A DNA stretch of 64,000 bases from Dehalococcoidia bacterium (lineage in GTDB: Bacteria; Chloroflexota; Dehalococcoidia; Lucifugimonadales; JAAXIE01): the NCBI GenBank assembly GCA_965197805.1, contig OZ240229.1, positions 1,638,502 through 1,702,501 on the forward strand, in the 5' to 3' direction. The first letter of the stretch is position 1; every line of letters begins with the position of its first letter. Under the pieces are notes generated by a model. That model made no database searches and had not been told where the DNA came from. It saw only the letters and a program-made list of their open reading frames with translations. Made by a program: the position numbers and the translations under genes. Below, piece after piece: positions 13,684-61,865 of the stretch.

Positions 13684-14550
13684 TCAGCAGAAGGGCAGGC
13701 CGCCAAGGTTAGAGAGGTCAAAAAACAACAAGTCGTCTTCCAAGCTGCTTGGCACGCACCCGCTCAACTTGTTGTTGCGGAGGTCCAGCGATACCAGGTT
13801 GGAGAGGCTGCCCAATTCCGGGGGTATCTCCCCGCTCAAGGCGTTGTTGTAGAGCATCAGAAATTGCAGGTTGGAGAGGCTGCCCAGCTCCGCCGGTATC
13901 TCCCCGCTCAAGTGGTTCAGGCCGAGGTCCAGCCTTGTGAGGTTGGAGAGGCTGCCCAACTCCGGCGGTATCTCCCCGCTCAACTCGTTGTTTTCGAGCT
14001 CCAGCCTTGTGAGGTTGGAGAGGCTGCCCAATTCCGGGGGTATCTCCCCGCTCAAGTCGTTTTCGTAGAGGGCCAGCGACTCCAGGTTGGCGAGGCTGCC
14101 CAGCTCCGCCGGTATCTCCCCGCTCAAGTCGTTGAATCTGAGGTCCAGCGCTGTAACCCGCCCGTCGTCGTCAGTGGTGACGCCCTCCCATTCGCCGAGG
14201 GGAGCGTCGCTCAGCCAGTTGTCGCTGTTCTCCCAGTTCTCACCGTCCGTTGCGTTGTAGAGGGCAACCAGGGCTTCCCGATCCGTTTCGGCGGAGCCGG
14301 AGGCCGCGGGCGGCGCTGTCGTAGCCGTAGGTCCAAGCGCAACGGCGGCAGTGGGCGCGGCCTCTGACCCCGGCGTGGAAGGCGTCCGTGCGGGGGAGGC
14401 CGGCGTCTCCGTTGGCGTGGACGCGGTACGGTCGGGGCCTGTCACGCCGGACGGCTCATCGGAGCCGCAGGCCGCGAGCGCCACCGTAAGGGCCAGCGCA
14501 AGGACAACGCTCAACAGGGTTATGTATCTTGTCGTGCGTGTACGGGTCAT
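13684..14550 (-). CDS. LRR lipoprotein (plant-type LRR consensus)
   Basis: The lipobox is LTVALAACG, followed by a P/T/A-rich linker. At least six repeats read LxxLxLxxNxLSGEIPxELGSLSNL. The ATG at 14550 is preceded by GGGAGGGAAAGGAA. The ORF-track start at 14598 is less likely. Confidence 0.85.
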   Translation of the reverse strand: MTRTRTTRYITLLSVVLALALTVALAACGSDEPSGVTGPDRTASTPTETPASPARTPSTPGSEAAPTAAVALGPTATTAPPAASGSAETDREALVALYNATDGENWENSDNWLSDAPLGEWEGVTTDDDGRVTALDLRFNDLSGEIPAELGSLANLESLALYENDLSGEIPPELGSLSNLTRLELENNELSGEIPPELGSLSNLTRLDLGLNHLSGEIPAELGSLSNLQFLMLYNNALSGEIPPELGSLSNLVSLDLRNNKLSGCVPSSLEDDLLFFDLSNLGGLPFC

Positions 14551-15418
14551 TTCCTTTCCCTCCCGGTCTTGACCGGCACCATATATCCACAGATTCATAC
14601 GGATAGTATGGCGGAGGTGCTATGGGGGTCAATGCTGAGACACCCGTTCGCCACTCCCAAATATGTGTTGGTATGTCGGCTTCCGCAGGGATGAGCGGGC
14701 GCACGATACCGCCCATCCTGAGCCTATCTGTTTTAAACCAGCAGAGGGTCGGGAAGTCGGTCTGGTGGAGGCCGGTCTGAACCAACCTGGGATAGCAGCT
14801 AGGGCATGTCGATGCCCTCCTGAACCCTATCGGCCACCGACGCCACTCGCTACTCCGGGACACCGCCTCGGCCTTCATCACCGACACGTGGGAACCGTGT
14901 CGGTGATGATATCGTCTATTCTCTCGGTGATGTCCATGGTGCAAGCGTGGGTGGGGTAGGCCAGCGCCCGGCGTCTCTCTACCCGCTTGGTGGCCACCAA
15001 GTCGATGAGCGCCTGCTCATTGGGATAGACCCGCTCCTCTGAAAGGAGCGGCGCATGGACGATGATGTCGCCGCTCCTGAGGAACTCTCCCAGTAGGGCA
15101 GCACTAGGGCCTGGCTAAAAGTCCAGAACGAACCTCAAGGTGAAGGTTCTTGATTTTGTCCAGTGTGGTGGAGACAGCCGGACAAGAAACATTTTGCAGA
15201 AAATGATTAGCACCTTGGAGCAGCGGAAAGTGGTCATGTCTGCAGGAAGACCGGCGGCCCATGATACTCGGTGTTTCGGGTTGTTGGAGCAGCCCTTCCG
15301 GTGCTGGCGCGGTCGAGACGGCTGTGTCCTCGCTAGCGTTGGCCCGATTTCTGGCCCTACCTGTTACCGAGCACGACTGTCTGAAGAGATCAAATCCGCC
15401 GCAGGCTCACTTTCATGG

Positions 15419-18397
15419 TCACTTCCGTAAGAATTTGGTCACGTAGTCTACGTCGACTGCGGGCATTCCCAGACCGATTTCCGACAATGCTTCGGAGAAC
15501 CGGCCGATGTCGTAGACGCTGGTATCGGACATGAACGGCTCGACTGACTCCAGGGACCGTATCAGAACTTTCAACTCCATGTCATCATCGCGGTTGGCCA
15601 TCGTGTCCAATCTTGATTTCCAGTCCCCCAATTGAGCGCGGTCCGCCACGTATCCGTGGATCTCCATATATGCAAAAACTTCATCGGCAGGTACGGGGGC
15701 CTGTTGAACCACGTTGTATACCCTGCCCAGGTGTCTGGGATCGTCGGAAATTTTCGTTATTGCCTTGACCAGAAAGTCGACAGGTGTCATCTCGAAGAAC
15801 CATTCCGGCACCAAGGGGGCACATCCGAGGCGGGCGCAGGCCTTGATAATCAACGAGAGAAAGTCATTCGGGTTGACCATGCCCGTACCGCTGTGGTGGC
15901 CAATGTTGCCCGGACGGAAGATGCATACCGGCAGTCCTCGAGAAACAGCCGACCAGACAAGCCGCTCCGCAACCCATTTGGCCTGATTGTAGCCCCCCTC
16001 CATCCTGTCGACGAAGCCGTCTATGTCGTTGTTCTCAAGGTAGGGGTTGTCGTCTCCTCCGGGGAAAATGCCGTTGGATGAAATGTATTGGATCGGCTTT
16101 GTTGCAGCGGTGCAGGCGAACTTGAGCACCTCCATTGTCCCTCCGACGGTGTGGGACTTGGCTGCAGAATAGGGGTAGGCGTAGTTGACCGAGGCCGCGC
16201 AATGGAAAATCAGGTCGATCTCTTCCGCCAGCCGCCGGTACTCCTCATCGTTCAGACCCATCCGGGGCCGGGTGAGGTCTCCAGCCACCGGAGCGATCCG
16301 TTGTCCGGATGACTGGTCGGCCAGCCCGTAAAATTTCAGGGTGTCCAGCACGCGGTTGGTGGAGCCGCCCTGTCCTGAGTCCGGGTCTCTTACCAAGCAG
16401 TAGAACCGGGTGTCCGGTCCCGTGGCGCGCAGCAGTTCGTCGAGCAAAAAGGCTCCCAGGAATCCGGTTGTTCCCGTCACAAGGACCGAGCACGCCTCGC
16501 TGAGACGTGTAATTCTCGGGGCGCCGCCTGGTGAAATCGCCGGGTCCAGGGTCGAGTCCTCGGCCAGTGAAATTCTGGATTCCATATTCGGCCCTCTATG
16601 TTCCAAGTATGCCCCCAACTCATTCATGGTGGGGTACTCGTAAATCTCCGTGCCGCTCAGTTCAATCCCAAACAGTCGTTCGATGCCCAGGGTGAGGTCC
16701 AGGCCCGTCAGGGAGTGGCCTCCGAGATGAAAGAAGTTCCAGTCATCTTCCAGTGAGTCGCCGTCGACTTCCAGTGCTTCACTCCATAGCTCCCGCAAGG
16801 CCCTGAGACGCTCCCCTGCGGTTGCGCACTTGGACAGCGGGGTGCGCTCCTTAACCGCATGTCTCCTTTCCCGCAATGCGGGCAATGCTTTGCGCTCCAG
16901 TTTGCCCGTCTGTTGATTTATCGGGAGCGTCTCCAGTTCCATGAAGTGGCTGGGCACCATGTAGAGCGGCAGATATCGTTCCAGCAGAGCACGCAGGTCT
17001 CTGCTTGTCCCGCTCTTCCCATCGACCTTCCATGCCGCTCGCGGGCCCCGGACGACGTAGGCCACGAGCCGCCTATTGGATTCGTCCTTGCTCTCGGCCA
17101 AAACCGCAGCATCGGCAGCGCCACAGTGCTTGCGGAGGGTCTCCTCTATGGCACTCAGGTAAACGCTGTAGCCCCTGATCTTGACCATCGAATCATTGCG
17201 GCCGATGATCGTTGTCACACCACGCCCATCAACTTCGGCAAGGTCTCCGGTGGCGTAATACCTCTCTCTGTCCCATATGACGAACCTCTGGGAATCCAGG
17301 TCGGGCCTCTTCAGATAGCCCCGGGCCAGTCCGCGACCGCCAATGAAGAGCTCTCCGACTCCGGTTGAAGCCAGATCGGACTGCCCCTCCGGTAGCACCC
17401 TGAGCGTCACCCCGTCCATTGCATAACCCACCGGGCACGCATCCACTCCGTCGAGACACAAGTCCGTCAGTTCAATGGTGCAAACGTCGTGGGTCTCGCT
17501 GATGCTGTAGGTGTTGAACACTCGCGCAGACCGGGACAGAACGTCCAAGGTCGGCTTAAGCAGGCTGGCCGGCACCACCTCGCCGTTCAGCCAGACCACA
17601 CGCAGAGAGGACAGCCGGGCCCGCAATTGTTCTGGGCTCGCCGAATTCAAGATCCCCTGCAGCAAGGACGGAGTGAAGAGCACCTCGGTAATCCGGTGTT
17701 TCGCTATGAACCCCGTAAGCGCGCGCGGCACGAACATCACATTATCGGGAATAACGTATACGGTTCCTCCCTTCAACAGCGGCCGGAGGAACTCCCAAGG
17801 AAAGAAGATGTTGCACGCGACCCTGTCTCCGACGCTGTGGGAACTGAACCTGTACCTCGCCAGGTAGGATGAAATCAGGGCGCCGCTGCTCTGCATAACG
17901 CCCTTTGGTTGTCCTGTTGTGCCGGAGGTGTAGGGGAGGAACGCCAGGTCGCCGGTGTCAACGCATATCTCATCGGTCGCGGGATCGAGCGCTCTCCAGG
18001 ACCGGTCGGAGTCAACGGGCAATAGGCAAGGCCCAGAGAATTTACTCAGCCTGGGCAAGTGCAGGGCCTTGGTGATCACCACCTTGGGTTGGGACTCGGA
18101 CACCAGTGTACCGAGCAGGGAATCGGGGAGATCCAGGGCCACTGGCATGAAGGCCGCGCCGGCCTTCAATGTCCCAATGACAGCGGCGATGTACTCCGGG
18201 CAGGTTTCCATGTATATGCCCACCGGATCATCGGTTGATACGCCGCAACGTCGAAGGTAGGCCCCCAAGGCATCCGTCGCCTGGTCCAGTTGTGCATAGG
18301 ATGTCTGCTCAGAGCCAAAGACTATTGCCGGAGTGTCTGGAGTCTCCGTCGCTTGATCCTTGAACAGCTGATGCAAGCCACTCCCTGCGGAATTCAT
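15419..18397 (-). CDS. stand-alone NRPS-like enzyme: adenylation - thiolation - thioester reductase (A-T-R)
   Basis: A-domain cores are LPYTSGTTGQPKGV, YATGDLA, GRNDSMVKIRGYSVYLSAIE and PINQQTGKLERKAL. The carrier domain reads FFHLGGHSLTG. The reductase domain reads VLVTGTTGFLGAFLLDELL with catalytic YNQAK. Confidence 0.9.
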   Translation of the reverse strand: MNSAGSGLHQLFKDQATETPDTPAIVFGSEQTSYAQLDQATDALGAYLRRCGVSTDDPVGIYMETCPEYIAAVIGTLKAGAAFMPVALDLPDSLLGTLVSESQPKVVITKALHLPRLSKFSGPCLLPVDSDRSWRALDPATDEICVDTGDLAFLPYTSGTTGQPKGVMQSSGALISSYLARYRFSSHSVGDRVACNIFFPWEFLRPLLKGGTVYVIPDNVMFVPRALTGFIAKHRITEVLFTPSLLQGILNSASPEQLRARLSSLRVVWLNGEVVPASLLKPTLDVLSRSARVFNTYSISETHDVCTIELTDLCLDGVDACPVGYAMDGVTLRVLPEGQSDLASTGVGELFIGGRGLARGYLKRPDLDSQRFVIWDRERYYATGDLAEVDGRGVTTIIGRNDSMVKIRGYSVYLSAIEETLRKHCGAADAAVLAESKDESNRRLVAYVVRGPRAAWKVDGKSGTSRDLRALLERYLPLYMVPSHFMELETLPINQQTGKLERKALPALRERRHAVKERTPLSKCATAGERLRALRELWSEALEVDGDSLEDDWNFFHLGGHSLTGLDLTLGIERLFGIELSGTEIYEYPTMNELGAYLEHRGPNMESRISLAEDSTLDPAISPGGAPRITRLSEACSVLVTGTTGFLGAFLLDELLRATGPDTRFYCLVRDPDSGQGGSTNRVLDTLKFYGLADQSSGQRIAPVAGDLTRPRMGLNDEEYRRLAEEIDLIFHCAASVNYAYPYSAAKSHTVGGTMEVLKFACTAATKPIQYISSNGIFPGGDDNPYLENNDIDGFVDRMEGGYNQAKWVAERLVWSAVSRGLPVCIFRPGNIGHHSGTGMVNPNDFLSLIIKACARLGCAPLVPEWFFEMTPVDFLVKAITKISDDPRHLGRVYNVVQQAPVPADEVFAYMEIHGYVADRAQLGDWKSRLDTMANRDDDMELKVLIRSLESVEPFMSDTSVYDIGRFSEALSEIGLGMPAVDVDYVTKFLRK

Positions 18398-19981: not shown

Positions 19982-21683
19982 CCCCGATCCACCGAAGAGA
20001 TGAGTGTGGGGGCGTAATGAAGGGGTAAGAAAGCGCTCCCTGCTTGGGGGATAATGGTTTCAGGAAGACGAAACCGACCCCAAACCGGGAGCACCCAATT
20101 GATGCTACCACCTGAGCGCCCCGACCGCATCCAAATCGCCTTTGATGATCACCGCCTGGTGGCCAATGCCGGGCTGCTCTTGCCGGTCACCCTGGCCCAG
20201 CGCCTGGGTCTGTCCCAGCTGGTTGACCGCCACGTTGACCTGGGCGATGCTCCTGGACGAGCCAACGCTGGCGACAAGATGCTGACCCTGGTAGCGTCGG
20301 CGCTGGCTGGGGGCGACTGCATCGACGACGCCGACGTGTTGCGCACCGGCGGGACCGCTCGTGCCATCGGCTGCGTGGTCAAGGCGCCGTCCACTCTGGG
20401 CACCTTCCTGCGCAGTTTCCGATGGGGTCACGTGCGCCAGATGGACCGGGTGAGTCGGGAGCTGCTGGCTCGGGCCTGGGCCGCCGGTGGGGGACCCGGC
20501 GACGGTCCGTTGACCATCGATCTGGACTCCACTATCTGCGAGACCTACGGGTTGGCCAAGGAAGGGGCACGGCGCCACAACTACACCGGCCAACGGGGCT
20601 ATCACCCGCTCCTCGCCATCGCAGCCGGCACCGGGGACGTGCTGATGGCCCGGCTCAGGGAGGGCCGGGCCAACACGGCCAGGGGCTCGGCCCACTTCCT
20701 GCGGGAAACGGTGGGGCGGGTGCGCCACGCCGGAGCCACCGGACCACTCACCGTGCGGGCCGACAGCGGCTTTTACACCCATGGCATCGTCGCCGTCTGT
20801 CGCAAGACGAAGGTCCGCTTCTCCATCACTGTCCGCCAGCACGCCCGACTGCGTAATCTCATCGAGGCCATACCAGAGGAAGAGTGGACGCCCATCCCCT
20901 ACTGGATGGAGGGCGCCGCCGACGTGGCCGAGACTGACTACACACCATTTGGCAGTGAGCCCGACGCCGTGCCGGTACGTCTCATCGTCCGCCGGGTGAA
21001 GCCCACGCCCGGTTCCCAACTGGCGCTCTTCGCCAACTATAGCTATCACGCTTTCATCACCGACCGGGAGGGCGACACCCTGGATCTCGAGGCCGACCAT
21101 CGCCGCCACGCCGAGATCGAGAACGCCATCCGCGACCTGAAGTACGGCGTGGGGCTCAACCACCTGCCATCGGGACGCTTTCCCGCCAACGCCGCCTGGC
21201 TGGCCGTCCAGGTCATGGCCCACAATCTGGCCCGCTGGACAACGCGCATCGGTCTGGGCGAGCCGGCGGCAACCACCAAGACCCTTAGGCGGCGCTTCTT
21301 CGCCCTGGCCGGACGGCTCACTCACTCCGCCCGTCGCCTCACCTTGCATCTTCCTCAGAGCTGGCCCTGGGGAAACCAATTCGGCAGAGCCCTGGCAAGA
21401 CTGCGCGCCCTACCGCTCCCTGCCTGACGGCGTCCGACCCATCCGCCGCACTACCCAACCGCCTGGCGGGCTTGCGCCACGCCGGTCCCTGAGTGTCTCC
21501 TGCTTCCAGCTGGCTGCCGGTCTCGCCCGCCACCAGCGGCTGCGGGCCGTCAGAAATCACATTTGCGCGGCTGTCGCACCCCACACCGTCCAAATCTGCC
21601 GGAATCAAAACCCGCCAGTCTCATTCCCGCACCTCTCACCCCTGGCCTGACCGGCACGGCCCAAACCCTCGGTGGATTCGGGG
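19982..21683 (+). mobile_element. complete IS1380-family insertion sequence (1702 bp)
   Basis: Terminal inverted repeats are CCCCGATCCACCGAAG (19982-19997) and the reverse complement of CCTCGGTGGATTCGGGG (21667-21683). A 4-bp direct duplication TAAG flanks the element at 19978-19981 and 21684-21687. Confidence 0.85.
20054..21427 (+). CDS. IS1380-family DDE transposase
   Basis: 457 aa and full length, with TIDLDSTICETYG, YHPLLA and the C-terminal HRRHAEIENAIRDLKYGVGLNHLPSGRF motif. The start may instead be the ATG at 20102. Confidence 0.9.
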   Translation: MVSGRRNRPQTGSTQLMLPPERPDRIQIAFDDHRLVANAGLLLPVTLAQRLGLSQLVDRHVDLGDAPGRANAGDKMLTLVASALAGGDCIDDADVLRTGGTARAIGCVVKAPSTLGTFLRSFRWGHVRQMDRVSRELLARAWAAGGGPGDGPLTIDLDSTICETYGLAKEGARRHNYTGQRGYHPLLAIAAGTGDVLMARLREGRANTARGSAHFLRETVGRVRHAGATGPLTVRADSGFYTHGIVAVCRKTKVRFSITVRQHARLRNLIEAIPEEEWTPIPYWMEGAADVAETDYTPFGSEPDAVPVRLIVRRVKPTPGSQLALFANYSYHAFITDREGDTLDLEADHRRHAEIENAIRDLKYGVGLNHLPSGRFPANAAWLAVQVMAHNLARWTTRIGLGEPAATTKTLRRRFFALAGRLTHSARRLTLHLPQSWPWGNQFGRALARLRALPLPA

Positions 21684-42687: not shown

Positions 42688-43700
<1,013 letters not shown>

Positions 43701-50987: not shown

Positions 50988-52070
50988 TCATCGCTTCTTG
51001 GCGGGGTTCCCGTCTTTGGCTCCCCACCCTCGGGACCGTCCCGCATTGGGGTATATCCGACTCGACCAGTTGTCGCCATTGAAGCTATGCCGAAAGCGCC
51101 TAGGCGCTTGCATTCGGATGCGGTCCAGGGGAGAGAAGTCCTGGTTCACCTGAGAGGCCATCCGGTCGGCGATATGAACATATTTCTGGACCATGTCCAG
51201 GGTGGTGTGTCCGAGGTTCTGCTGCAACATGAAGACGTTGCCGCCGTTCAGGAGGAAACGGGTGGCGTAGGTGTGGCGCATCAGATGCGGGTGTAGTCTC
51301 GGGACCTTGGCGGCTTTGGAGACCCTCTGGGTTAGGGACCTGAGGGCAAGGGGCGACAGGCAATGACCGTCTATGGATAGGAAGAAGGTGTCGGCTACCT
51401 GTCCCTCGTTTTCGAATCGGTAGCGGGTAGCATAGTTGGTGAGAGCCCTCTGGCAGTTGGTGCCAAAGGCGACTACCCGCTCCTTGTCTCCCTTCCCTAG
51501 GGCCTTTATGTACCTCGCGTCCAGATGGACGTCAGCGTACTTCAGGGTGACGACCTCGGTGAGTCTCAGCCCGGTATCCAACATCAGGGAATATATGGCC
51601 GTGTTCCTTGCCCCCAGGACAGTGTCGACGTTCATGGTGGCGAATATCCGCTCAATCTCCTCGTCGGTCAGTATCTCTACCTCCTTTTGCCTCACCTTGG
51701 GCACCTTGAGGTTCTGCAACCTGTGGCACTCGGTGAAGCCCTGGCGATACATCCAGTTGAAGAAAGCCCGCAGAGCCCTGACCCGGTTGTTGAGGGTGTA
51801 GCTTGAAGTCTGCCCCCGCCAGCCCTTCCTCTCCTGGAGGTAGAGGATGAAGCTCCTGACCTCGTCCTCGCCCAAGTCGTCCACCTGCGTGGACATCCCC
51901 TCCCCTCTCAACCATCCTAGGAACAGGTCGAGGGCTTCGTTGTACCACTGCACGGTTCTGGGCGACTTGCCGTCGGACCTGTTGTGGACCTCGAAACGCT
52001 CCACCAGTTTGTCGAGTTCCAGATTTCCCGCGACCACCTTGCGGCTTGCCCTCTTCTTCATAGCAGCCAT
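50988..52070 (-). CDS. tyrosine recombinase / phage-type integrase
   Basis: The SAM-like N-domain reads TVQWYNEALDLFLGW. The catalytic region reads LDTGLRLTEV...LGKGDKERVV...HLMRHTYATRFL...LQQNLGHTTLDMVQKYVH, giving the R...H-x-x-R...Y pattern. The ATG is at 52070. Confidence 0.9.
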   Translation of the reverse strand: MAAMKKRASRKVVAGNLELDKLVERFEVHNRSDGKSPRTVQWYNEALDLFLGWLRGEGMSTQVDDLGEDEVRSFILYLQERKGWRGQTSSYTLNNRVRALRAFFNWMYRQGFTECHRLQNLKVPKVRQKEVEILTDEEIERIFATMNVDTVLGARNTAIYSLMLDTGLRLTEVVTLKYADVHLDARYIKALGKGDKERVVAFGTNCQRALTNYATRYRFENEGQVADTFFLSIDGHCLSPLALRSLTQRVSKAAKVPRLHPHLMRHTYATRFLLNGGNVFMLQQNLGHTTLDMVQKYVHIADRMASQVNQDFSPLDRIRMQAPRRFRHSFNGDNWSSRIYPNAGRSRGWGAKDGNPAKKR

Positions 52071-52228
52071 GTTACTCACTTGCCCCACTTTCGAGAATTG
52101 TCTGTCGGGCAAGCAGGAGGAGGGGCCGTGCACGACTCACCAGAAGAGGTAGGCAGCGAGTCGGATTGCCTCTTGAGTGAGGCGACCCTTTTCCTTAGGA
52201 AAGGAGTGAACCGAAGCTAGTTCGTAGC

Positions 52229-52357: not shown

Positions 52358-53029
52358 CTACTCGCTCGTGGCTGGAGGTGGTGCGGCGTCGATTGTGAGC
52401 TCTTTCACAACGAATGCATCCGCTACCTCAAGGGCTATGCCGGCCCATCGTGGATCATCCACCAGTTTCCGTCCGACCCATCCTGGTGCCTCCAGCCATA
52501 GCCCGCCCGCGTTCACTTCACATTCAGTCCGATAGCAGACGGTCGAGTCTGTAGAAGTGGGGGCGAGTTCTACTCGGCTTTGGTCCTCAAACTGTGTAAT
52601 CGCCGCAACGGGGATCGGAACCAAATACGCGTTCGGCACCCTGATGGTGTTCTCTCCTACTTCATCATCCTCGTCGAGGATGCCATTGAACGAGGTGTAC
52701 CGCTCCCATCGGCCATTCTTAACACGTTGGTAGCTGCCAACGGGATCGATATCGCTAACACCCAGTGAATCCATCGCGTCGGAACCAATGGTCGTGTCCA
52801 TCCAGTCTGACCGCGATGCGTAGTTGAGTCGATGGATTTCCTTGACGGTCCGACCGTTCCAAGTCAGGCCGTCAACTTCGTAGACCATCGTGAGGGGCGG
52901 CCACTCATTCTTGCCGGAGCTGGCGGCATCTCGGGAGCTGACGTAAATGACGCAGCCTAGGACGGCACCGAATAATACCGAGATCGCGCCGATGGCGATT
53001 ATACGGTTGGTTGTAACGTAGTGTGGCAC
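52358..53029 (-). CDS. membrane-anchored hypothetical protein (paralog A)
   Basis: It has an N-terminal TM helix then WPPLTMVYEVDG...EIHRLNYASRSDWMDT...YRTECE. It is colinear with the neighbouring paralog. Confidence 0.6.
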   Translation of the reverse strand: MPHYVTTNRIIAIGAISVLFGAVLGCVIYVSSRDAASSGKNEWPPLTMVYEVDGLTWNGRTVKEIHRLNYASRSDWMDTTIGSDAMDSLGVSDIDPVGSYQRVKNGRWERYTSFNGILDEDDEVGENTIRVPNAYLVPIPVAAITQFEDQSRVELAPTSTDSTVCYRTECEVNAGGLWLEAPGWVGRKLVDDPRWAGIALEVADAFVVKELTIDAAPPPATSE

Positions 53030-53038
53030 GATGGAGCG

Positions 53039-53716
53039 TTATTCCGTGGCTGGTGGCCCAGCATCGATCTCCAGGCTGCGCACCACCCATCTCTCTCCCA
53101 CCTTGAGCAGGATGCCCCACCGAGGATCATCCAACAGAATCTTCTCCAAGGGGCTCCGACCCATGTTGAAGGCACGTCCGATCAGGGATCGGCCGACCGC
53201 ATTGTCTTCGCATTCCGTACGATAGCAGACCGTTGCAATTGTGGATGCATCCACTATTTCCGTCTCATCTCCCTCCACCAACGTCGGCATTATGTGCGGA
53301 GGGGCTTTTGGTTGGATGAACCCATTGGGGACCCTGATGGTGTTCTCGCCTAGCTCTTCCACACTGGTTATATCATCGAACACGTCGTACTCCTCGTATC
53401 GAGTGCCCTTTACACGTTGATAACCCCCAATCGTAAGGTCTCCGCCCACGCCCCGGGTTTGGACCACGTCGGATTCAATCACGGTGTCCTTCCAGTCCCG
53501 CCAAGACCGGTATTCAAACCGATGGACCTCTCTAGTTGTCGTCTGGTTGAACGTTGGGCCGGGAAACTCGTAGACCATCGTCAGGGGAGGCCAGTCGTAG
53601 GGCCTGCTCTTGGAGGCATTGGAGAATAGGAGGAAGGCAATGGCGCCTAATGAGCCGAGGAGCGCCAAAATCACGACGATAGTGAGCAGACGATGGCTTG
53701 CGACGTAGTGGAGCAT
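53039..53716 (-). CDS. membrane-anchored hypothetical protein (paralog B)
   Basis: The architecture and motifs are the same (WPPLTMVYEFPG...EVHRFEYRSWRDWKDT...YRTECE). Confidence 0.6.
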   Translation of the reverse strand: MLHYVASHRLLTIVVILALLGSLGAIAFLLFSNASKSRPYDWPPLTMVYEFPGPTFNQTTTREVHRFEYRSWRDWKDTVIESDVVQTRGVGGDLTIGGYQRVKGTRYEEYDVFDDITSVEELGENTIRVPNGFIQPKAPPHIMPTLVEGDETEIVDASTIATVCYRTECEDNAVGRSLIGRAFNMGRSPLEKILLDDPRWGILLKVGERWVVRSLEIDAGPPATE

Positions 53717-53837
53717 TGCCTGCCTCCCGCGACTCCCGCCTATCGTACCCGCTGGCGGGGCTATCTTTGACCCCTAATCCGCACTCTACTATAATGCGCT
53801 GGCCCTAATACCCACCCTTTTGCGAAAGGAAGGCCGA

Positions 53838-54338
53838 ATGCAAGAGGCAGTCCTGCATCCTGCAGCCATCCTGTCTGAGCTTAAGAAGAACAAAATCACC
53901 CATGTGGTCTGGCTGCCCGACAGCGAGACCAACTTCATGTATCACCAGCTTACCGCCGACCCCGATGTCGACCTCATACCCGTCTGTCGTGAGGGCGAGA
54001 CGATGGCGGTAGCCGCTGGGCTGTGGCTGGGCGGCGCCAAGCCGGTCGTGCTCATCCAGAACACCGGCGTGTTTGAGTCGGGCGACTCCATCCGAGGGCT
54101 GGGTGTCGACGTCAACCAGCCGCTAGTGATGCTGGTGGGCTACCGGGGCTGGGACCGCCACGGCGTAACCCGCGACTCGGCTGCCAAGTTCATTGAGCAT
54201 ATCCTCTATGCTTGGGGTATCAACTACTACCTGGTGGAGACCGACGAAGACGCCACCCGCATCAGCGAGGCCATGGACGAGGCGGAGCGTACCAAGAAGC
54301 CCGTGGCGGTGCTGGTGGGCACCGAATTTGGTTCCTAA
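53838..54338 (+). CDS. TPP-dependent decarboxylase, alpha (PYR-domain) subunit; sulfopyruvate/phosphonopyruvate decarboxylase-like
   Basis: It reads VVWLPDSETNFMY...IPVCREGETMAVAAGLWLGGAKPVVLIQNTGVFESGDSI...VGYRGW. The ATG at 53838 follows AAGGAAGG. Confidence 0.8.
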   Translation: MQEAVLHPAAILSELKKNKITHVVWLPDSETNFMYHQLTADPDVDLIPVCREGETMAVAAGLWLGGAKPVVLIQNTGVFESGDSIRGLGVDVNQPLVMLVGYRGWDRHGVTRDSAAKFIEHILYAWGINYYLVETDEDATRISEAMDEAERTKKPVAVLVGTEFGS

Positions 54339-54359
54339 GACCGAGAGGAGACTTCAGAT

Positions 54360-54947
54360 ATGATCACCAACTTTGACGCCTGTCGCATTGTGGAAGAGCA
54401 CCGGAACGAGGCGGTTGTCATCACTTCCATGAACGCTGGCAACTGGAGATTCGGCTGGCCCGCGGTGAGCCACAAGGAAGAGTTGGACCTGCCCGTCTCC
54501 GGTGCCATGGGTAAGGCATCCTCGGTCGGCTTGGGCTTGGCCTTAGCCCACCCCGAACGCAAGGTAATCGTGCTGGATGGCGATGGCAGCCTGCTGATGA
54601 ACCTCGGCACCTTGGTGACCATCGCCAACAAGTCACCTGAGAACCTCTACCACTTCGTGTTCGAGAATGGCGTCTACGCGGTAACGGGTGGCCAGCCCAT
54701 ACCCGGCAACAACAACATCAGCTTCCAGAACATGGCCAAGGACGCCGGTTATGCTGTCGCCTACGAGATTGCCGATACGGAGGAGCTGGCCACCAGCGTG
54801 GGCCGTATTTTGGAGGAGAAGGGCCCCGTTTTGGTTTGCCTCAAGGTGGAGCCGGAAATTGAGAACACCCCTGTGCAGTTCAGGCAGCGCCCCCGTCGCA
54901 ACATCTATACCGCCATGGAAGAGCTGCCCAAGGCCTTGAGTCAGTAG
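54360..54947 (+). CDS. TPP-dependent decarboxylase, beta (PP-domain) subunit
   Basis: GAMGKASSVGLGLALAHPERKVIVLDGDGSLLMNLGTLVTIA contains the GDG(X)n TPP-Mg binding motif. Confidence 0.8.
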   Translation: MITNFDACRIVEEHRNEAVVITSMNAGNWRFGWPAVSHKEELDLPVSGAMGKASSVGLGLALAHPERKVIVLDGDGSLLMNLGTLVTIANKSPENLYHFVFENGVYAVTGGQPIPGNNNISFQNMAKDAGYAVAYEIADTEELATSVGRILEEKGPVLVCLKVEPEIENTPVQFRQRPRRNIYTAMEELPKALSQ

Positions 54948-55036
54948 CATCCCTGACCCCCCTCACCATCTCCGACACCCAGAGGGAGAAGGGACTACTT
55001 AAGGGTCTCGATTGAGTCTGCTCAACGCGGTGCGAT

Positions 55037-55219
55037 GTGTTTAAGGGCCTTGCGGCCGGTCTGATAGGCCGAGCCATTGGCTTGGCGCTTTTCGGTGTAG
55101 GCTTCTGGGCATTGGCCAAGGGCTTCATCGACTCCGATGTCCCCATCGCCTTCTTGGGCGGCGCCCTGATGCTGGGAGGCATGTGGGCCATGGCTCACTT
55201 CCGCCGTATGCAAGCCTAG
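55037..55219 (+). CDS. 60-aa two-helix membrane protein
   Basis: MFKGLAAGLIGRAIGLALFGVGFWALAKGF...IAFLGGALMLGGMWAMAHF. It sits between the two beta-type genes. Confidence 0.45.
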   Translation: MFKGLAAGLIGRAIGLALFGVGFWALAKGFIDSDVPIAFLGGALMLGGMWAMAHFRRMQA

Positions 55220-55234
55220 GGCAGGGTAGGAGCC

Positions 55235-55801
55235 ATGATACCCGCACGAGAAGCCTTGCAAGCCATAGCCAACCGTCGCGGAGATGCCGTCGCCGTTGCA
55301 ACCACTACTCCTCTACGCTTGTGGGGAGAGCTTTCGCAGCGTCGTGACCTCGATGCCGACTTATCAGACTGCATGGACAAAGCTTCGTCCGTCGGATTGG
55401 GATTGGCCCTAGCTCAGCCCGACCGACAGGTCATGGTCTTGGACAGCGATACCGCGCTGCGCTCCAATCTCGCAGGGCTGGCCACAGTGGGAGGAGCGGC
55501 GCCTGCCAACATGGTGCACTTCGTCTTGGAAGACAAGACCCGTCTACCCACTGACGGGATGCCCATCGGCCCTCTGGACAAGCTGGACTACAAGGCGCTG
55601 GCGCAAGATTCTGGCTACAAACGAGTCTTCAGCTTCGACAACCTAGAGGAGTTGGTGCTGACCTTGGAAGAGGTGCTGGAAGGGCCGGGCCCCACGTTCG
55701 TCTCCTTACAAGTCGCCTACAACGAGGAGTCCCTGCCTGAATACCCGTCGAGGCGCATGAGGGAGTCGATGGCAGAGGTGCGGCGTACACTGGCGGGGTA
55801 G
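55235..55801 (+). CDS. second beta-type TPP-fold paralog with a degenerate cofactor motif
   Basis: DCMDKASSVGLGLALAQPDRQVMVLDSDTALRSNLAGLATVG is colinear with the beta subunit, but GAMG is replaced by DCMD and GDGS by SDTA. Confidence 0.65.
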   Translation: MIPAREALQAIANRRGDAVAVATTTPLRLWGELSQRRDLDADLSDCMDKASSVGLGLALAQPDRQVMVLDSDTALRSNLAGLATVGGAAPANMVHFVLEDKTRLPTDGMPIGPLDKLDYKALAQDSGYKRVFSFDNLEELVLTLEEVLEGPGPTFVSLQVAYNEESLPEYPSRRMRESMAEVRRTLAG

Positions 55802-55889
55802 CCGGGTGGGTTGACTGGATTGTTCGCCTACTACGCTCTCTCCACATCTAATTGCAGCGATGGTTTGGGGCGCCAGGCGGGTTTGGTTC

Positions 55890-56369
55890 TTAGATACACC
55901 CTGCGTCTTCCAGAATCTGGCGGGTCTCCGGAGACAGGTCTCGTTCTGCCTGTGCGTGGTCCTCTTCCAGTTCCTCCATCCGCTCCCCTAAAGCATCCAT
56001 CCCATCCTGTGCCTCTCCCATCTGCGCCATAAGTTCCAGCAATCTCTCTTGGTCGTCGTTTTGCTGCGCTTCTTCAAACTCCTGCAGGAGGTCCGAAAGT
56101 CCCGTATCCTTTAACGCCTTGATTCCGGCTTCGGCTCCTTCAATCTGTAACTCGTGGAGTCGTTGCAGTTCCTCAGGGGGATTCCATTTCTTGGCCTCAG
56201 CCAGCGCATCCTGGAGTGCAGCACCTGGGGACAAGGACTCAGACCGAAACTTGTCCCCCAAGCCCCCGCAAGCGGTCGCGTACTCTTGGACTGTCATTCG
56301 TTGGCCGCCACCACATGCGACGAGTGCAATCAGGGTCACCAGAACCAACACCGTGGATATTCTGGGCAT
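55890..56369 (-). CDS. acidic helical lipoprotein
   Basis: ATG at 56369 gives MPRISTVLVLVTLIALVACGGG, a lipobox. The rest is E/Q/L-rich helices. The ORF-track extension to 56480 covers a decayed PaREP1/HEPN-like fragment. Confidence 0.7.
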   Translation of the reverse strand: MPRISTVLVLVTLIALVACGGGQRMTVQEYATACGGLGDKFRSESLSPGAALQDALAEAKKWNPPEELQRLHELQIEGAEAGIKALKDTGLSDLLQEFEEAQQNDDQERLLELMAQMGEAQDGMDALGERMEELEEDHAQAERDLSPETRQILEDAGCI

Positions 56370-56399
56370 CGTGTACTCCTTTATTGGTTGGCTCTCAGA

Positions 56400-56760
56400 T
56401 CTTTGGTGAAGGTAAAGACCGTGGAGCTGGCCTTGGCTCGAGAGATAGCGGCCTACCAAAGGCTTCACCGAAAGGCTCAAGCGAAAGGCTTGAACGCAGG
56501 GCTCTATAGGCAGCCAACCTCCCTCAGGGCCTCAGATACTTCCGGTGAAAGTTCATTTTCAGCTTCTAGGACAGCTGCTTCCAGCGGGGCCATTGAGGCC
56601 TCCATCTCGACCATTTGCACGACGCCTATCTCCTAGGCATTGCTGATGTTGCGGGGGGGGGTGAGCCGTTCCATAGCTGCGGCGTACATAGTGCGAGCAC
56701 CCGCGAATATGCGCACTGCGTCGTCCGTGATGACAAGCGATACCTTCTGTGGGGCGCAGG
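56400..56760 (-). pseudogene. decayed pieces of the PaREP1/HEPN-like gene and of a lipoprotein paralog
   Basis: VKPLVGRYLSSQGQLHGL is at 56410-56475. ...ELSPEVSEALREVGCL-stop (compare the lipoprotein end DLSPETRQILEDAGCI) is at ~56500-56640. ITDDAVRIFAGARTMYAAAMERL is at ~56660-56735, interrupted at a G9 tract (56653-56661). Confidence 0.5.
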
Positions 56761-56779: not shown

Positions 56780-57163
56780 CTACGCGTCGGCCAACCGCTC
56801 GGCGTCCTGAATGTAATCGATTGTCTCGCGTATTCGCCTCTCGGTTTCGGACAAAGGTTCGCACCAACCATAGTAGAAGCAAAGGCCGTGGAGCTGGCCT
56901 TGCCTCGAAAAATAGCGGCCTACCAAAGGCTTCACCGCCGTGTCTTGGGATGCTAGCGTGTCCAGTCCCCTAGTGGTATCGGGCGATTTCTCCGGCTCCA
57001 CACCAGTCCGGGCGAGTATGAGAGCGTCGGTGGCCCGTCTGGTCGCACACCACGCCTTCTCCGAAGCATCGCGTATGTCGTCGTCGGCAAGACGCTCCAA
57101 GGCCGCGGCGTACATCTCACGGGCATCGGCGAAGATGCGGGCTGAATCGGCGGTGATGGTCAA
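56780..57163 (-). CDS. PaREP1/HEPN-like four-helix protein, copy 2
   Basis: 127 aa: ...DIRDASEKAWCATRRATDALILARTG...VGRYFSRQGQLHGLCFY, containing an R-x4-H motif. It is near-identical in layout to copy 1. Confidence 0.6.
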   Translation of the reverse strand: MTITADSARIFADAREMYAAALERLADDDIRDASEKAWCATRRATDALILARTGVEPEKSPDTTRGLDTLASQDTAVKPLVGRYFSRQGQLHGLCFYYGWCEPLSETERRIRETIDYIQDAERLADA

Positions 57164-57207: not shown

Positions 57208-57591
57208 CTACGCGTCGGCCAACCGCTCGGCGTCCTGAATGTAATCAATGGTCTCGCGGATTCGCCGTTCAGTGGTCGGGAGGGGGTCGCACAGCCCGGT
57301 ATAGAAACAATCACCGTGGAGTTGGCTTTGTCTTGAGTAGTAGCGGCCTACCAGAATCTTCACGTTGGGGTCTCGTTCTGCGAGGCTGTCCAACGCGCGG
57401 GTGGTGTCGGGCGACTTGGGAGGCTCCACGCCGGTACGGGCGACGATCAGCGCGTCGGTGGCTCGCTTAGCGGCGCACCAAGCCTTTTCCGATGCGTCAC
57501 GTATGTCGTCTGCAGCAAGACATTTCATTGCTGCGGTATACATCGCGCGGGCATCGCCGAATATGCGCTCAGCGTCGGCCGTGATGGTCAT
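57208..57591 (-). CDS. PaREP1/HEPN-like four-helix protein, copy 1
   Basis: ATG at 57591 gives MTITADAERIFGDARAMYTAAMKCL...SEKAWCAAKRATDALIVARTG...VGRYYSRQSQLHGDCFY. It starts 16 nt after the monooxygenase stop. Confidence 0.6.
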   Translation of the reverse strand: MTITADAERIFGDARAMYTAAMKCLAADDIRDASEKAWCAAKRATDALIVARTGVEPPKSPDTTRALDSLAERDPNVKILVGRYYSRQSQLHGDCFYTGLCDPLPTTERRIRETIDYIQDAERLADA

Positions 57592-57607
57592 CCACGTCGC
57601 TACTGCC

Positions 57608-58783
57608 CTAAATCCGGCTGGCGGCTCCGCGGCGCTCCTGGTAGTCGGAGCGGGCTTTCTTGATGGAGCCCTTGCGCATGTCGTCCAGCAGTTGGACATT
57701 GTCGCGGGACCAGTCGCGGGAGGTCTCCAAGCCGGTTAGGCTGCCTTGGAAGTGGGGGGCAACGTAGCGGGCCAGTAGCTCGTAACTGTGTAGCATCTTC
57801 TCTCGTGAGGTCCACTCGGCGACTGTCACCAGCAGGCCACCGAAGCCGCCACTAAGTTCCTCCAACTCCTCCATACGGGCGATGCAGTCGTCAGGGCTGC
57901 CGACGACCCACACGCCACGGTCCACCATCTCGTCGATGATGCGCTCCGGCGGGGCATCGGGCAGGGGTTGGCCCAAGGTCTCGTGGAAGTATTCGGTGAG
58001 CCATGTGGCAGCACCCTTGCGGGCTTCTCGGAAGGCCTCTTGGCGGCTCTCAGCTAGGTAGACGGGCATCACCAAGCGCCAGTCGTCGCGACTGACTGTG
58101 GCGCCTGACTCGGCTGCGGCGTCCTCAGTCATGCCCCAGACATCGGCTAGGGTCAACTTGCCGTATTCCTGGCGCGGTACGCTGAGCGAGAGCAGGCCCG
58201 CGCCATACTTGCCAGCTACATGCGGGCCGGATGGCGACTGCGCTGCAGCTACTGCTATCGGCATGTGAGGACGCTGGTAAGGGCGGAGATGCAAAACGGC
58301 GTCGTGCAGTTCGAACCAGTCACTCACATGAGTGAACGGCTCAGTCTCCTCGAACAGGCGCATGATCACGCCCATGGACTCATCCATCATCTCTCGCTGT
58401 CGAGTGGGTTCGATGCCCAGCATATGGGCGTCGCTCACAAGAGCACCGGGACCCACGCCCAGCATGGCGCGGCCACGGGTCAGGTGGTCCAGTAGCACCA
58501 TGCGGTTGGCCACCATGAGGGGGTGATGGTAGGGGAGGCTGATGACACCGGTGCCGAGCCTGATGTGGCGGGTGCGCTCTGCCGCAGTGGCCATGAACAC
58601 CTCGGGAGAGGCGATGATTTCCCAACCCGCACTATGGTGCTCGCCGATCCAAGCCTCGTCGTAGCCAAGGTCATCGAGCCACTGTATCAGCTCGATATTC
58701 CGTTCCAAGGATAGGGTAGGGTTCTCCCCAACCCGGTGGAAGGGGGCCATGAAGATACCAAAGTCCTTTCGCTCCACCGACAT
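57608..58783 (-). CDS. luciferase-like (LLM class) flavin-dependent monooxygenase
   Basis: It reads FGIFMAPFH...LDDLGYDEAWIGEHHSAGWEIIASPEVFMA...RLGTGVISLPYHHPLMVANR...GRAMLGVGPGAL. The ATG is at 58783. Confidence 0.85.
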   Translation of the reverse strand: MSVERKDFGIFMAPFHRVGENPTLSLERNIELIQWLDDLGYDEAWIGEHHSAGWEIIASPEVFMATAAERTRHIRLGTGVISLPYHHPLMVANRMVLLDHLTRGRAMLGVGPGALVSDAHMLGIEPTRQREMMDESMGVIMRLFEETEPFTHVSDWFELHDAVLHLRPYQRPHMPIAVAAAQSPSGPHVAGKYGAGLLSLSVPRQEYGKLTLADVWGMTEDAAAESGATVSRDDWRLVMPVYLAESRQEAFREARKGAATWLTEYFHETLGQPLPDAPPERIIDEMVDRGVWVVGSPDDCIARMEELEELSGGFGGLLVTVAEWTSREKMLHSYELLARYVAPHFQGSLTGLETSRDWSRDNVQLLDDMRKGSIKKARSDYQERRGAASRI

Positions 58784-59054
58784 CCACCGACCTCCTAGTC
58801 GTGCCGCGCCGCATACAGGCACAGCTACGCATTCTCAGATACGATTTTCCATCGCAGTGTAGGCGTCGCAGGCCGCGAGTGTCAAACGCGTCTCGTGGGG
58901 TGTGGCTGGGCCAAGATCGGCCGGAAACTCGGCAATCGCACTGGCGGTTGAGTGAGGAAGTCCACTTGAGGCACGTTAGCGATAAGCCACAGGTTGACGT
59001 ACTTTCTATCATATCTCAATAATAGAAATACAGCGATGGAGGTCTTGCTCTCTT

Positions 59055-60231: not shown

Positions 60232-61563
60232 TCAAAACCCCTGATTCCGTCCGAGTTTATTAGCAGCCGGTAGGTGTTTATTAGCAGCCTGCCCGTCCAC
60301 GCTAAAAACTGGACTCACGCCCAACTCGTACGCGGACTGGATCAAGACGCAGATATTATGACACAGGAACTTCAACATAGCCTCGTTGACCTGAGCAGCA
60401 GGGACCTTAGAGCTCACTGCTTGCCCGAACTTGGTCTTAACCATGTGGAAGACGGTTTCGACGTTCGACCGCTTATGATAGTGGGCCAAGAACTCCTCCC
60501 GGTGCAGGTTGTAGAAGTGGTAGGCACGCTCCCACAGGGCATCGCGCTTGTGGTGGGTTATGGCCTTGGAGTTGGATTTGAAGGGGATGAAAGCGGTTCC
60601 GCCCACTGCCGCAACTGCTCGCAGGTTGCCCTTACTGAGATAGGCTTTGTCCGCAGAGACTTCACGGACATTGAAGTTCTGGGCCGTGGTCTCTACGAAG
60701 GGAGCGAAGAACGGAGAGTCGGCGGAGTCTGTCTCAGTGGCAACCGCGGTGGTGATGATGTTAGTGGTCACTCCACAGATTGCGTGGGCCTTCACCCATT
60801 GGGCCTCCCGGATGACCTTGTTCCATTTGTTGTCGAACCACCTGTGGTAGACCGACGTGGCAAACCCAGTGGAGTCGATGGCGAAGTCGCTCTCGACCGA
60901 GGCCAAGGGCAGTGCGCTCCGCTCAATCAGTTCCTTCAGCACCGGGGTCAGGGCCGGGTCTTCCATGCATTTCCAGATGCTTCCCGTGGAGGGAGCCTTG
61001 TCGAGCAAGCCGGAGGCCTCGGCGTTTCTCACGTCGGTCATGGCCCTGCGGGCGGGCATACGGTTGTAGACCTTGAGGGCAGAGGCGAACACCATATCGG
61101 ACAGCGGCAGTCGTGGGCGCCCGGTGGCCTTGGCTGGTGGCTGGGGGATCGTGTCGCAGAGTTCCCGGAGCAGCGTGAGGAAATGTTCCTGCTCATGCTC
61201 TTGGGCTGCGTTGTAGTTTGCCCAGTCCTGCCGATAGGTGGTAACGCGGGCTGTACGGGTCTCCACTGTAGTCCCGTCGGGTCTCTCCTCGCGCTGGATG
61301 ATGAGCTCCACGGCGTAGACATGTTTACAGGGTTGCTGCCGTCGCTCGAAGTCCGGGCAGGTGCAGAAAGGTGTGTCATCGGTATTGACGACATACGAGC
61401 CGTTGCCGGACTGGGAGGGGACCTTGTAGCCGAGCCGATTCTTCTCGATGCGGATCATGGCTGCGATGGCCATGCCCCTGAGTTGACGGCCGGCATCGCC
61501 GTCGTCAGGGTCACTGGGTCCAAGGGCGGTTACGGCGTTGAGGTCGAAGTGGAGTTGACTCAC
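60232..61563 (-). CDS. DDE transposase with an N-terminal SWIM zinc finger
   Basis: The SWIM finger is CTCPDFERRQQPCKHVYAV. The DDE candidates are AIDSTGF, SADKAYLS and HKRSNVETVFHMVK. A GTG start at 61563 has GGGAG upstream. I could not define clear terminal repeats. Confidence 0.8.
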   Translation of the reverse strand: MSQLHFDLNAVTALGPSDPDDGDAGRQLRGMAIAAMIRIEKNRLGYKVPSQSGNGSYVVNTDDTPFCTCPDFERRQQPCKHVYAVELIIQREERPDGTTVETRTARVTTYRQDWANYNAAQEHEQEHFLTLLRELCDTIPQPPAKATGRPRLPLSDMVFASALKVYNRMPARRAMTDVRNAEASGLLDKAPSTGSIWKCMEDPALTPVLKELIERSALPLASVESDFAIDSTGFATSVYHRWFDNKWNKVIREAQWVKAHAICGVTTNIITTAVATETDSADSPFFAPFVETTAQNFNVREVSADKAYLSKGNLRAVAAVGGTAFIPFKSNSKAITHHKRDALWERAYHFYNLHREEFLAHYHKRSNVETVFHMVKTKFGQAVSSKVPAAQVNEAMLKFLCHNICVLIQSAYELGVSPVFSVDGQAANKHLPAANKLGRNQGF

Positions 61564-61676
61564 TATCTGCACTCCCGGATAATATGTTACTATACGGGAA
61601 GTATAAGTGTAGCAGGATGGTAAGTCAATACATAGCGGGGTATACTTTGCGGGAAGTTGTACCTGCGGAGACAGCA

Positions 61677-61865
61677 ATGGCGGAAGCACTGCAACAACCC
61701 GGAGAGTTCCAAACGACAGCCTACAGATGTCGATGTGGGCACGAGTGGTTGCCCAAGAGCCTCAAGGGAGACCGTCCGAAGGTGTGCCCCAAGTGCAAGT
61801 CTCCCTACTGGGACCGACCGCGCAAGTTGGCAAGGAAGGCGATAGATGGTGCCTTGACATGTTAG
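61677..61865 (+). CDS. 62-aa zinc-ribbon protein
   Basis: ATG at 61677 follows GGAG. The Cys pairs are CRCGHEW...CPKCKSPYW. Confidence 0.5.
   Translation: MAEALQQPGEFQTTAYRCRCGHEWLPKSLKGDRPKVCPKCKSPYWDRPRKLARKAIDGALTC

Follow-up and report, generated by a model that had tools for sequence, protein, structure and literature searches.

The 64,000-nucleotide (nt) stretch of DNA from a Dehalococcoidia bacterium that was analysed here (contig OZ240229.1 of assembly GCA_965197805.1, positions 1,638,502 to 1,702,501; hereafter the window) contains four plus-strand open reading frames (ORFs), alpha, beta1, a micro-ORF and beta2, which fill positions 53838-55801 as an earlier note on the sequence had placed them. 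The four genes constitute a conserved operon of Dehalococcoidia and SAR202-type Chloroflexota. This four-gene architecture is real, widespread and apparently undescribed. The reading that we favour, with moderate confidence, is a split 2-oxoacid decarboxylase dependent on thiamine diphosphate (ThDP, also TPP) that has acquired a non-catalytic, membrane-tethered pseudo-subunit, beta2.

A conserved four-gene operon

One genome per GTDB species was scanned and a relative of beta2 was encoded in 324 species genomes; gene order and identities were checked in the best 80 of these 324 species. The best 80 were all Dehalococcoidia, SAR202 or Chloroflexota metagenome-assembled genomes (MAGs). When the four window proteins were searched by tblastn, the order alpha-beta1-micro-beta2 was found in the same orientation in essentially all of them. 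Alpha was the most conserved of the four, with 73-98% identity to the window protein, followed by beta1 (53-91%), beta2 (49-89%) and the micro-protein (31-90%). The same order was seen in loci reached via other proteins (L001-L005, L086-L089 and L090), and it was kept though the flanking genes differed between genomes. We concluded that the arrangement is far beyond chance, because it recurs in about 80 independent genomes under strong purifying selection.

Three loci departed from this pattern. In L020 defence-type genes for a BrxD-like protein and an SNF2 helicase lie upstream of micro, and alpha and beta1 were not found within 6 kb. In L022 (4488-5759) two tandem beta1 copies precede micro-beta2, and in L050 (5095-5583) truncated, overlapping alpha and beta1 matches come before an intact micro-beta2, possibly through a deletion or fusion. 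Separately, the MAG CBDFIZ01 carries two full copies of the module, L007 on contig_1 and L009 on contig_2, each with a beta2 about 88% identical to that of the window. The two copies have the same downstream genes and could reflect a duplication, strain heterogeneity or a binning artefact.

The layout of the operon in the window is given in Table 1. Alpha and beta1 are separated by 21 nt, and one promoter-like site lies 5' of alpha. A convincing terminator was not found inside the operon, and no Rfam match (riboswitch or other RNA element) was obtained within 53000-56500.

Table 1. Features of the operon and its control region, in window positions.
Feature	Position	Strand	Remarks
Sigma-70-like promoter candidate	53767-53795	+	TTGACC-17-TATAAT, 11/12 matches; consensus match only; 43 nt 5' of alpha start codon
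alpha, 166 amino acids (aa)	53838-54338	+	PYR domain, PF02776; AAGGAAGG ribosome-binding site upstream
beta1, 195 aa	54360-54947	+	PP domain, PF02775, 70 bits
beta1/micro intergenic junction, 89 nt in window	54948-55036	.	Insertion-prone in relatives
micro-ORF, 60 aa, GTG start	55037-55219	+	Matches no family in Pfam
beta2, 188 aa	55235-55801	+	PP domain, PF02775, 33 bits; GGTAGGAG ribosome-binding site upstream

The subunits and the altered cofactor motif of beta2

Alpha matched TPP_enzyme_N in Pfam with 31.7 bits and, judged from this domain, is the PYR (aminopyrimidine-binding) subunit of a split ThDP-dependent decarboxylase. It aligned to chain 9IZ3_A of RhiE with E 3.7e-12. In this alignment the first Glu of the alpha segment REGE falls on the Glu in RED of RhiE, and may therefore be the cofactor-activating Glu. 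The ratio of nonsynonymous to synonymous substitution rates (dN/dS), calculated by the Nei-Gojobori method for the window genes against genus-level relatives (dS 0.6-2.3), was 0.02-0.05 for alpha. Such exceptional conservation fits a protein that has to satisfy several partners.

Beta1, which matched TPP_enzyme_C, is the presumed catalytic partner of alpha. Its motif stretch, SGAMGKASSVGLGLALAHPERKVIVLDGDGSLL, contains an intact ThDP-Mg signature: G48-A-M-G51, G74-D-G-S77, N103-G104 and T109-G-G-Q112. Throughout 121 beta1-type proteins the residues G48, M50, G51, G74-D75-G76-S77, N81, N103-G104, Y106 and T109-G110-G111-Q112 were all invariant. Beta1 aligned to chain 9IZ3_B of RhiF with E 9.9e-21, and its dN/dS was 0.05-0.08.

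Beta2 is 35% identical to beta1 (E 3e-34) and reaches less than half of its Pfam score (Table 1). In the motif stretch of beta2, SDCMDKASSVGLGLALAQPDRQVMVLDSDTALR, D45-C-M-D48 stands in place of GxMG, S71-D-T73 in place of GDG and D100 in place of the Asn, and TGGQ is gone. The beta1 sequence ENG, in which the Asn is the second Mg ligand, reads EDK in beta2. Beta1 has both the canonical GDG-X(24-27)-N motif and the GxMG loop, whereas in beta2 neither is intact. The KASSVGLGLALA helix and the PP fold are kept.

The replacements were found family-wide when 119 beta2-type proteins were compared with the 121 beta1-type proteins. The beta2 type has its own invariant set (D42, D45-C46-M47-D48, R76 and D100), and 102 of the 119 have C at position 71, with S in 16. 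Y106, G110 and Q112, invariant in beta1, vary across the beta2 family, and T109 and G111 are retained. Common to both families are the KA(S/P)xVGLGLALA helix, VLD, P90, N92 and H95. In some beta2 members another residue stands in for the Mg-ligand Asp (CSS in P0015, CGS in P0022, CNS in P0023), and more distant relatives are also without it (SSS in P0246, QTK in P0271).

Database searches recovered 297 homologs of beta2, mostly 50-60% identical and from Chloroflexi/SAR202 sources; in an exhaustive profile search the beta2-type motif occurred in only about 25 clusters at 50% identity. A neighbour-joining tree placed beta2 as monophyletic, with successive outgroups that were stepwise less degenerate: DCPD/NDA, DCVD/SSS, DCPH/SDA, DCEG/QTK and finally DAAG with GDG retained. 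The nearest canonical betas were of the beta1 kind; the beta1-family protein P0152 scored 161 bits in the profile search versus about 100-120 for most others. The dN/dS of beta2 was 0.035-0.07, on par with beta1. An AlphaFold model showed a confident PP-domain fold (predicted local distance difference test, pLDDT, 91.9), for which the best structural match in the PDB was RhiF (9IZ3/9IZ4; template modelling score about 0.8) and the fourth-best AzcBC (9U8Q).

We concluded that beta2 is a selected, neofunctionalised paralog rather than a pseudogene, because its dN/dS is low, its own motif is family-wide, it has many homologs and its fold is confident. The roles of the replaced motifs are known, and we infer from them that ThDP binding has been lost; most likely beta2 is without canonical ThDP binding. 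Beta2 thus has several of the features by which pseudoenzymes are recognised: a homologous fold that is kept, a cofactor motif replaced throughout the family, maintenance by purifying selection and a conserved place beside the gene of the catalytic paralog.

Hydropathy shows two hydrophobic stretches rich in Gly in the micro-protein, and its AlphaFold2 model is a helical hairpin (H2-31 and H37-59, pLDDT 83). After the second helix the family has a basic RR cluster and then a variable polar tail. Clustering of all ORFs recovered a homolog directly upstream of beta2 in 70 of 83 loci, including loci missed by tblastn. Among these homologs the aligned start positions and the pattern M(L/P)K...GR..G..GF..L..GF...G..LI..G.YLM..RR were conserved. 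Nine database clusters call the gene with 60-64 aa, all of them unnamed and without a Pfam match. Its dN/dS was 0.08-0.15. In 47 of 68 loci the micro stop codon overlaps the beta2 start, with a median distance of -4 nt, and from this spacing the micro-protein is predicted to be translationally coupled to beta2 in the relatives. The gap between beta1 and micro had a median of 141 nt and extended up to 2.6 kb in the loci measured.

Could beta2, the micro-ORF or both be decaying or spurious ORFs? The weak Pfam score of beta2 (33 bits) would agree with this, as would the GTG start, the weak ribosome-binding site and the missing family of the micro-ORF. The low dN/dS of both genes at dS 0.6-2.3, the 297 homologs and 324 species genomes with relatives of beta2, the conserved micro start positions and motifs and the model confidence for both proteins make it extremely improbable, however. 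A pseudogene or chance ORF was rejected for both genes on dN/dS, conservation and confident folds.

These results agree in part with the earlier note, which had read the locus as a split TPP decarboxylase resembling sulfopyruvate (ComDE) or phosphonopyruvate decarboxylases; the Pfam domains, the best-scoring NCBIfam families and the structural match to RhiEF all point to a split enzyme of the ComDE, Ppd or RhiEF kind. The changes that it listed, GAMG to DCMD and GDGS to SDTA, are exact in the sequence, and its third gene is a real conserved beta paralog with a degenerate motif, given the family-wide motif set and the dN/dS. In the relatives this gene was neither absent nor pseudogenised, and the alignment did not restore an intact motif. 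The arrangement, which the note had proposed to look for in other genomes, is kept in about 80. The note had also described a 60-aa two-helix protein wedged between the two betas; position and hairpin held, but the protein is coupled to beta2 specifically and not merely wedged.

Two further kinds of PP-domain protein were observed during the comparison. The proteins P0263, P0286, P0316, P0325, P0344, P0347, P0370 and P0376 make up a separate group in which GDG is replaced by SEG (FDSEGALLMN) and DNECYATTGGQ is kept, apparently a conserved and distinct ThDP-motif variant in the same superfamily. In L091 (1-933), on a contig of just 936 bp, the end of a beta1-like gene is followed 160 nt later by the beta paralog P0250, which keeps GDG but has DAAG for GxMG, QDG for NG and AANG for TGGQ. 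P0250 may be an intermediate or an independently degenerating third subunit; a micro-ORF was not detected on the 936-bp contig.

Proposed assembly and its alternatives

In the assembly that we propose, the locus would encode a four-component ThDP-dependent decarboxylase system for 2-oxoacids or related compounds, specific to Dehalococcoidia and SAR202-type Chloroflexota. The catalytic sites would lie where alpha and beta1 meet, as they do in RhiEF and ComDE. Beta2 would have arisen when a beta1-type gene was duplicated, with the PP fold and the shared helix kept and canonical Mg-ThDP binding lost. Beta2 would then act as a non-catalytic, 'prozyme'-like subunit that takes beta positions beside alpha or docks on the alpha/beta1 core. 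Through the overlapping or adjacent stop and start codons, beta2 and the 60-aa membrane protein would be produced in a fixed ratio, and the micro-protein would most likely bind beta2 and hold it, and thereby the enzyme, on the cytoplasmic side of the membrane. Synteny and scaffold conservation suggest the physical association of beta2 with alpha/beta1; its association with the micro-protein and the tethering to the membrane are likewise predicted. The substrate is probably a small 2-oxoacid that gives an aldehyde.

A more far-reaching version of this assembly is an obligate asymmetric, membrane-docked complex, in which a dead beta2 held by the micro-protein replaces half of the cofactor-binding subunits beside the hyper-conserved alpha. 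We put it forward tentatively, as a possibility with clearly less than an even chance of being correct.

Several points weigh against a non-catalytic, membrane-held beta2. The loss of ThDP binding is an argument from motif roles, and the contacts of beta2 with alpha, beta1 or the micro-protein are putative and deduced from the genes. The third G of GDG varies in some active ThDP enzymes. Furthermore, the Asp of GDG, D72, is retained in 115 of the 119 beta2-type proteins and a second Asp has been gained at the Asn position; a metal site or an altered cofactor site in beta2 is conceivable. Finally, all foreign insertions seen in the module fall between beta1 and micro and never between micro and beta2. 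They comprise a RelB/YafQ toxin-antitoxin pair in L004, an SDH-family protease in L005 and the BrxD-like and SNF2 helicase genes in L020. The insertions suggest a possible separate transcript for micro-beta2, which could also act alone.

With D72 kept, beta2 might be a second catalytic PP subunit on the same alpha, binding ThDP in a remodelled pocket or else another diphosphate, a cationic ligand or a metal. One alpha would then serve two betas, giving a second activity or specificity. The invariance of M47 and the ability of an Asn-to-Asp ligand still to bind metal speak for such a site, and the new invariants D45, C46, D48 and R76 resemble a selected site, not decay. The confident PP-like fold and the very high conservation of alpha, which is compatible with two obligate partners, would agree as well. 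We nevertheless consider a second catalytic beta unlikely: GxMG and GDG have each lost their two glycines, Y106, G110 and Q112 are variable and several beta2 members are without the Mg-ligand Asp. The two added Asp near the diphosphate site should, moreover, repel a diphosphate.

The position of the insertions bears on another explanation, that micro-beta2 works independently, for instance in binding or sensing at the membrane, and lies beside alpha-beta1 only through tandem duplication. Foreign genes have entered at the beta1/micro junction only, a gap of up to 2.6 kb in the loci measured and of more than 6 kb in L020, and micro is coupled to beta2 much more tightly than to beta1. However, order and adjacency were kept in about 80 genomes with differing neighbourhoods and at about 50% sequence divergence, and the helix and scaffold common to beta1 and beta2 are conserved. 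No locus was seen in which micro-beta2 had been relocated from an intact alpha-beta1, L020 being assessable only within 6 kb. An independent micro-beta2 unit is therefore a distinctly improbable explanation, and we keep to the pseudo-subunit that works with alpha and beta1.

Family, neighbourhood and wider meaning

Alpha and beta1 show the hallmark of split decarboxylases, a separate PYR protein of about 170 aa adjoining a separate PP protein of about 190 aa. Their place among the curated families was scored with NCBIfam equivalog models and the cut-offs of these. Alpha reached 85.3 bits against ComD (TIGR03845, cut-off 147.95), and beta1 122.8 bits against ComE (TIGR03846, cut-off 221.5), for which beta2 reached 57.4. 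Against Ppd (TIGR03297, cut-off 312.5) the scores were 127.8 for beta1, 76.8 for beta2 and 43.7 for alpha, and even the sum of alpha and beta1, 171, was below. Beta1 scored 118.8 bits against PRK06163 (cut-off 240). Because the scores fall below the curated cut-offs, the module is, by this measure, a distinct clade of split PYR/PP decarboxylases and not an orthologue of the named enzymes. Orthology to ComDE or Ppd was rejected on the missed cut-offs and the absent pathway neighbours. In the source annotations the proteins are called 'hypothetical protein', 'phosphonopyruvate decarboxylase', 'sulfopyruvate decarboxylase subunit beta' or 'acetolactate synthase large subunit-like'.

Among relatives, structures have been solved only for RhiEF and AzcBC. 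RhiEF of Bacillus subtilis is a heteromeric phosphonopyruvate decarboxylase (PDB 9IZ3/9IZ4; Nakamura et al. 2024, as cited in PMC12141560) and is described as the first hetero-oligomeric ThDP decarboxylase to have its structure solved, in 2024 (PMC12141560). In this 2025 review of heteromeric enzymes, RhiEF and ComDE are treated as two-subunit enzymes (PMC12141560). As in our module, the PYR protein RhiE and the PP protein RhiF are separate and have about 170-190 aa; in RhiEF, ThDP is bound at the heterotetramer interface. For each of alpha, beta1 and beta2, RhiEF was the entry in the PDB that matched best. RhiEF differs in having two subunits only and in lying in a phosphonate cluster with a phosphoenolpyruvate (PEP) mutase, whereas the module has the extra motif-degenerate PP subunit and the membrane micro-protein, no PEP mutase nearby and a similarity to RhiEF of 50-78 bits.

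ComDE, the sulfopyruvate decarboxylase of methanogens, is likewise a split alpha/beta ThDP decarboxylase with adjacent genes and among the best curated family matches. The module differs from it by the sub-cut-off scores and by a surrounding without coenzyme M or sulfolactate genes, and no third PP paralog or membrane partner of ComDE is described in the literature searched. AzcBC, a ThDP-dependent alpha-imino acid decarboxylase from Streptomyces (PDB 9U8Q-9U8S, released 2026), is a split PYR/PP decarboxylase too and was matched by beta1 with E 1.7e-5. It is, in contrast, a two-component natural-product enzyme, and its entry description reports no degenerate paralog. Since AzcBC acts on an alpha-imino acid, substrates vary widely in the split family and the fold does not fix the substrate.

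Non-catalytic partners that modulate an active enzyme are found elsewhere, e.g. the prozyme of the trypanosomatid S-adenosylmethionine decarboxylase and IlvN of acetohydroxyacid synthase. Prozymes resemble beta2 as incompetent partners that are derived from or encoded with the catalytic subunit and are under purifying selection; they belong to other enzyme families and to eukaryotes. IlvN is the regulatory small subunit, an unrelated ACT-domain protein and no PP-domain paralog. For ThDP enzymes the literature searched yielded no dead PP-domain paralog that has a membrane hairpin as its partner. Nothing relevant was found in the searchable literature on a third subunit, on ThDP pseudo-subunits or on these decarboxylases in SAR202, Dehalococcoidia or Chloroflexi, in line with the claim of the earlier note that such a subunit was undescribed for the family.

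As to the substrate, the module could be a plain ComDE or Ppd/RhiEF orthologue in organosulfonate or phosphonate metabolism, with the pathway genes elsewhere in the genome. This would concern the substrate only and would be compatible with the proposed architecture. The best-scoring curated families, the best-matching structure and the automatic Joint Genome Institute names 'phosphonopyruvate decarboxylase' or 'sulfopyruvate decarboxylase subunit beta' all lean towards it. Nevertheless, the scores are far under the equivalog cut-offs (85 versus 148, 123 versus 221 and 128 versus 312), and the split family includes AzcBC (9U8Q), so that the fold leaves the substrate unfixed. The PEP mutase motif EDKx5NS gave zero matches in the six-frame translations of the 64-kb window and of 91 loci (1.14 Mb). 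Genes for coenzyme M, sulfolactate, sulfoacetaldehyde or phosphonate metabolism were found neither in the window neighbourhood nor among the conserved neighbours of 83 loci. We consequently give orthology to these enzymes a low probability. The earlier note had correctly reported that PEP mutase, sulfolactate and coenzyme M genes are missing nearby; its comparison to sulfopyruvate or phosphonopyruvate decarboxylases does not carry over to the substrate, with scores below the cut-offs and the pathway genes absent from the vicinity. Its suggestion that a nearby luciferase-like monooxygenase belongs to the same pathway could not be upheld either, as the synteny is limited to five genus-level relatives.

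This luciferase-like gene (57608-58822) was rejected as a partner because it lies on the opposite strand with unrelated genes between. It is syntenic, with 92-97% identity, only in L006-L009 and L030, and near other loci (e.g. L088) we found only paralogs of 24-30% identity, which are to be expected in SAR202 genomes rich in such monooxygenases. The conserved neighbours elsewhere are a convergent DtxR/MntR-like repressor gene (49 loci), an ABC transporter, aspartyl-tRNA synthetase, GatCA and a cytidylate-kinase-like gene. A function could not be read from them and this approach was rejected; the neighbours are housekeeping or unrelated genes.

A classical short-chain dehydrogenase/reductase (SDR) of 253 aa is encoded 28-116 nt downstream of beta2 in one subclade (L001/L010-L023). 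It scored near the cut-offs of PRK06138 (304.5 versus 312) and BudC (261.8 versus 270), and could reduce an aldehyde or acyloin product, which is a mild lead. In L090, whose beta2 (P0244) is divergent, the strand opposite to alpha encodes a D-2-hydroxyacid dehydrogenase (1268-2245, minus strand) upstream of it; three small genes (unnamed, PIN-like and cupin-like) separate the two. The dehydrogenase, seen at this one locus, could supply a 2-oxoacid.

In the window the operon sits among mobile-element genes, toxin-antitoxin or defence-like genes and genes without an assigned family; its neighbours include an integrase gene (50988-52133) and HicB-like, DDE and IS21 transposase genes. Just upstream, two paralogous ORFs lie in tandem (223 aa at 52358-53029 and 225 aa at 53039-53716, both minus strand), each with an N-terminal hydrophobic segment and without a Pfam match; homologs of 38-50% identity were found at the same position only in L007-L009. 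A second tandem pair of paralogous ORFs, 127 and 163 aa (56780-57163 and 57208-57699, both minus strand), lies between the operon and the luciferase-like gene. In L006 this pair is likewise duplicated, and in L025 one of the copies comes after beta2.

Over the whole window, many mobile-element genes occur, at 20054-21427, 42756-43553, 50988-52133 and 60232-61689 (DDE transposases, IS21 IstB, a tyrosine integrase and a SWIM+DDE transposase), along with HicB-like and HEPN genes. An integrase 97% identical to that of the window is found at the same place in L008. Eukaryote-like repeat proteins are encoded at 444-3173, 6464-8335 and 13684-14598 (an ankyrin-repeat protein of 623 aa, a protein with leucine-rich repeats and a 909-aa protein that contains fn3). 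This pattern is characteristic of bacteria that live with a host, sponge symbionts for example; among the related loci, several are from 'SB06xx_bin' Chloroflexi MAGs. The minus-strand gene at 15419-18397 encodes a 992-aa product whose AMP-binding, PP-binding and NAD_binding_4 domains are arranged as in a carboxylic acid reductase or in a protein like a non-ribosomal peptide synthetase with a terminal reductase.

Split PYR/PP decarboxylases such as ComDE and RhiEF are considered ancestral among ThDP enzymes. A lineage-wide, selected PP subunit with a dead cofactor motif, together with a membrane micro-protein, would add a new quaternary and regulatory solution to this textbook family, and the module would lend itself naturally to tests of half-of-the-sites behaviour among ThDP enzymes. 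If the obligate asymmetric complex were true, its active centres would be permanently 'half-site', or a new acidic Cys/Asp ligand site would gate activity, an architecture not seen before in the ThDP superfamily and present in a clade that is among the most abundant of the dark-ocean bacteria. The Dehalococcoidia and SAR202 carriers have a large ecological weight and few characterised enzymes, and the mis-naming of these proteins as 'phosphonopyruvate decarboxylase' can mislead metagenome inferences on phosphonate and sulfonate cycling.

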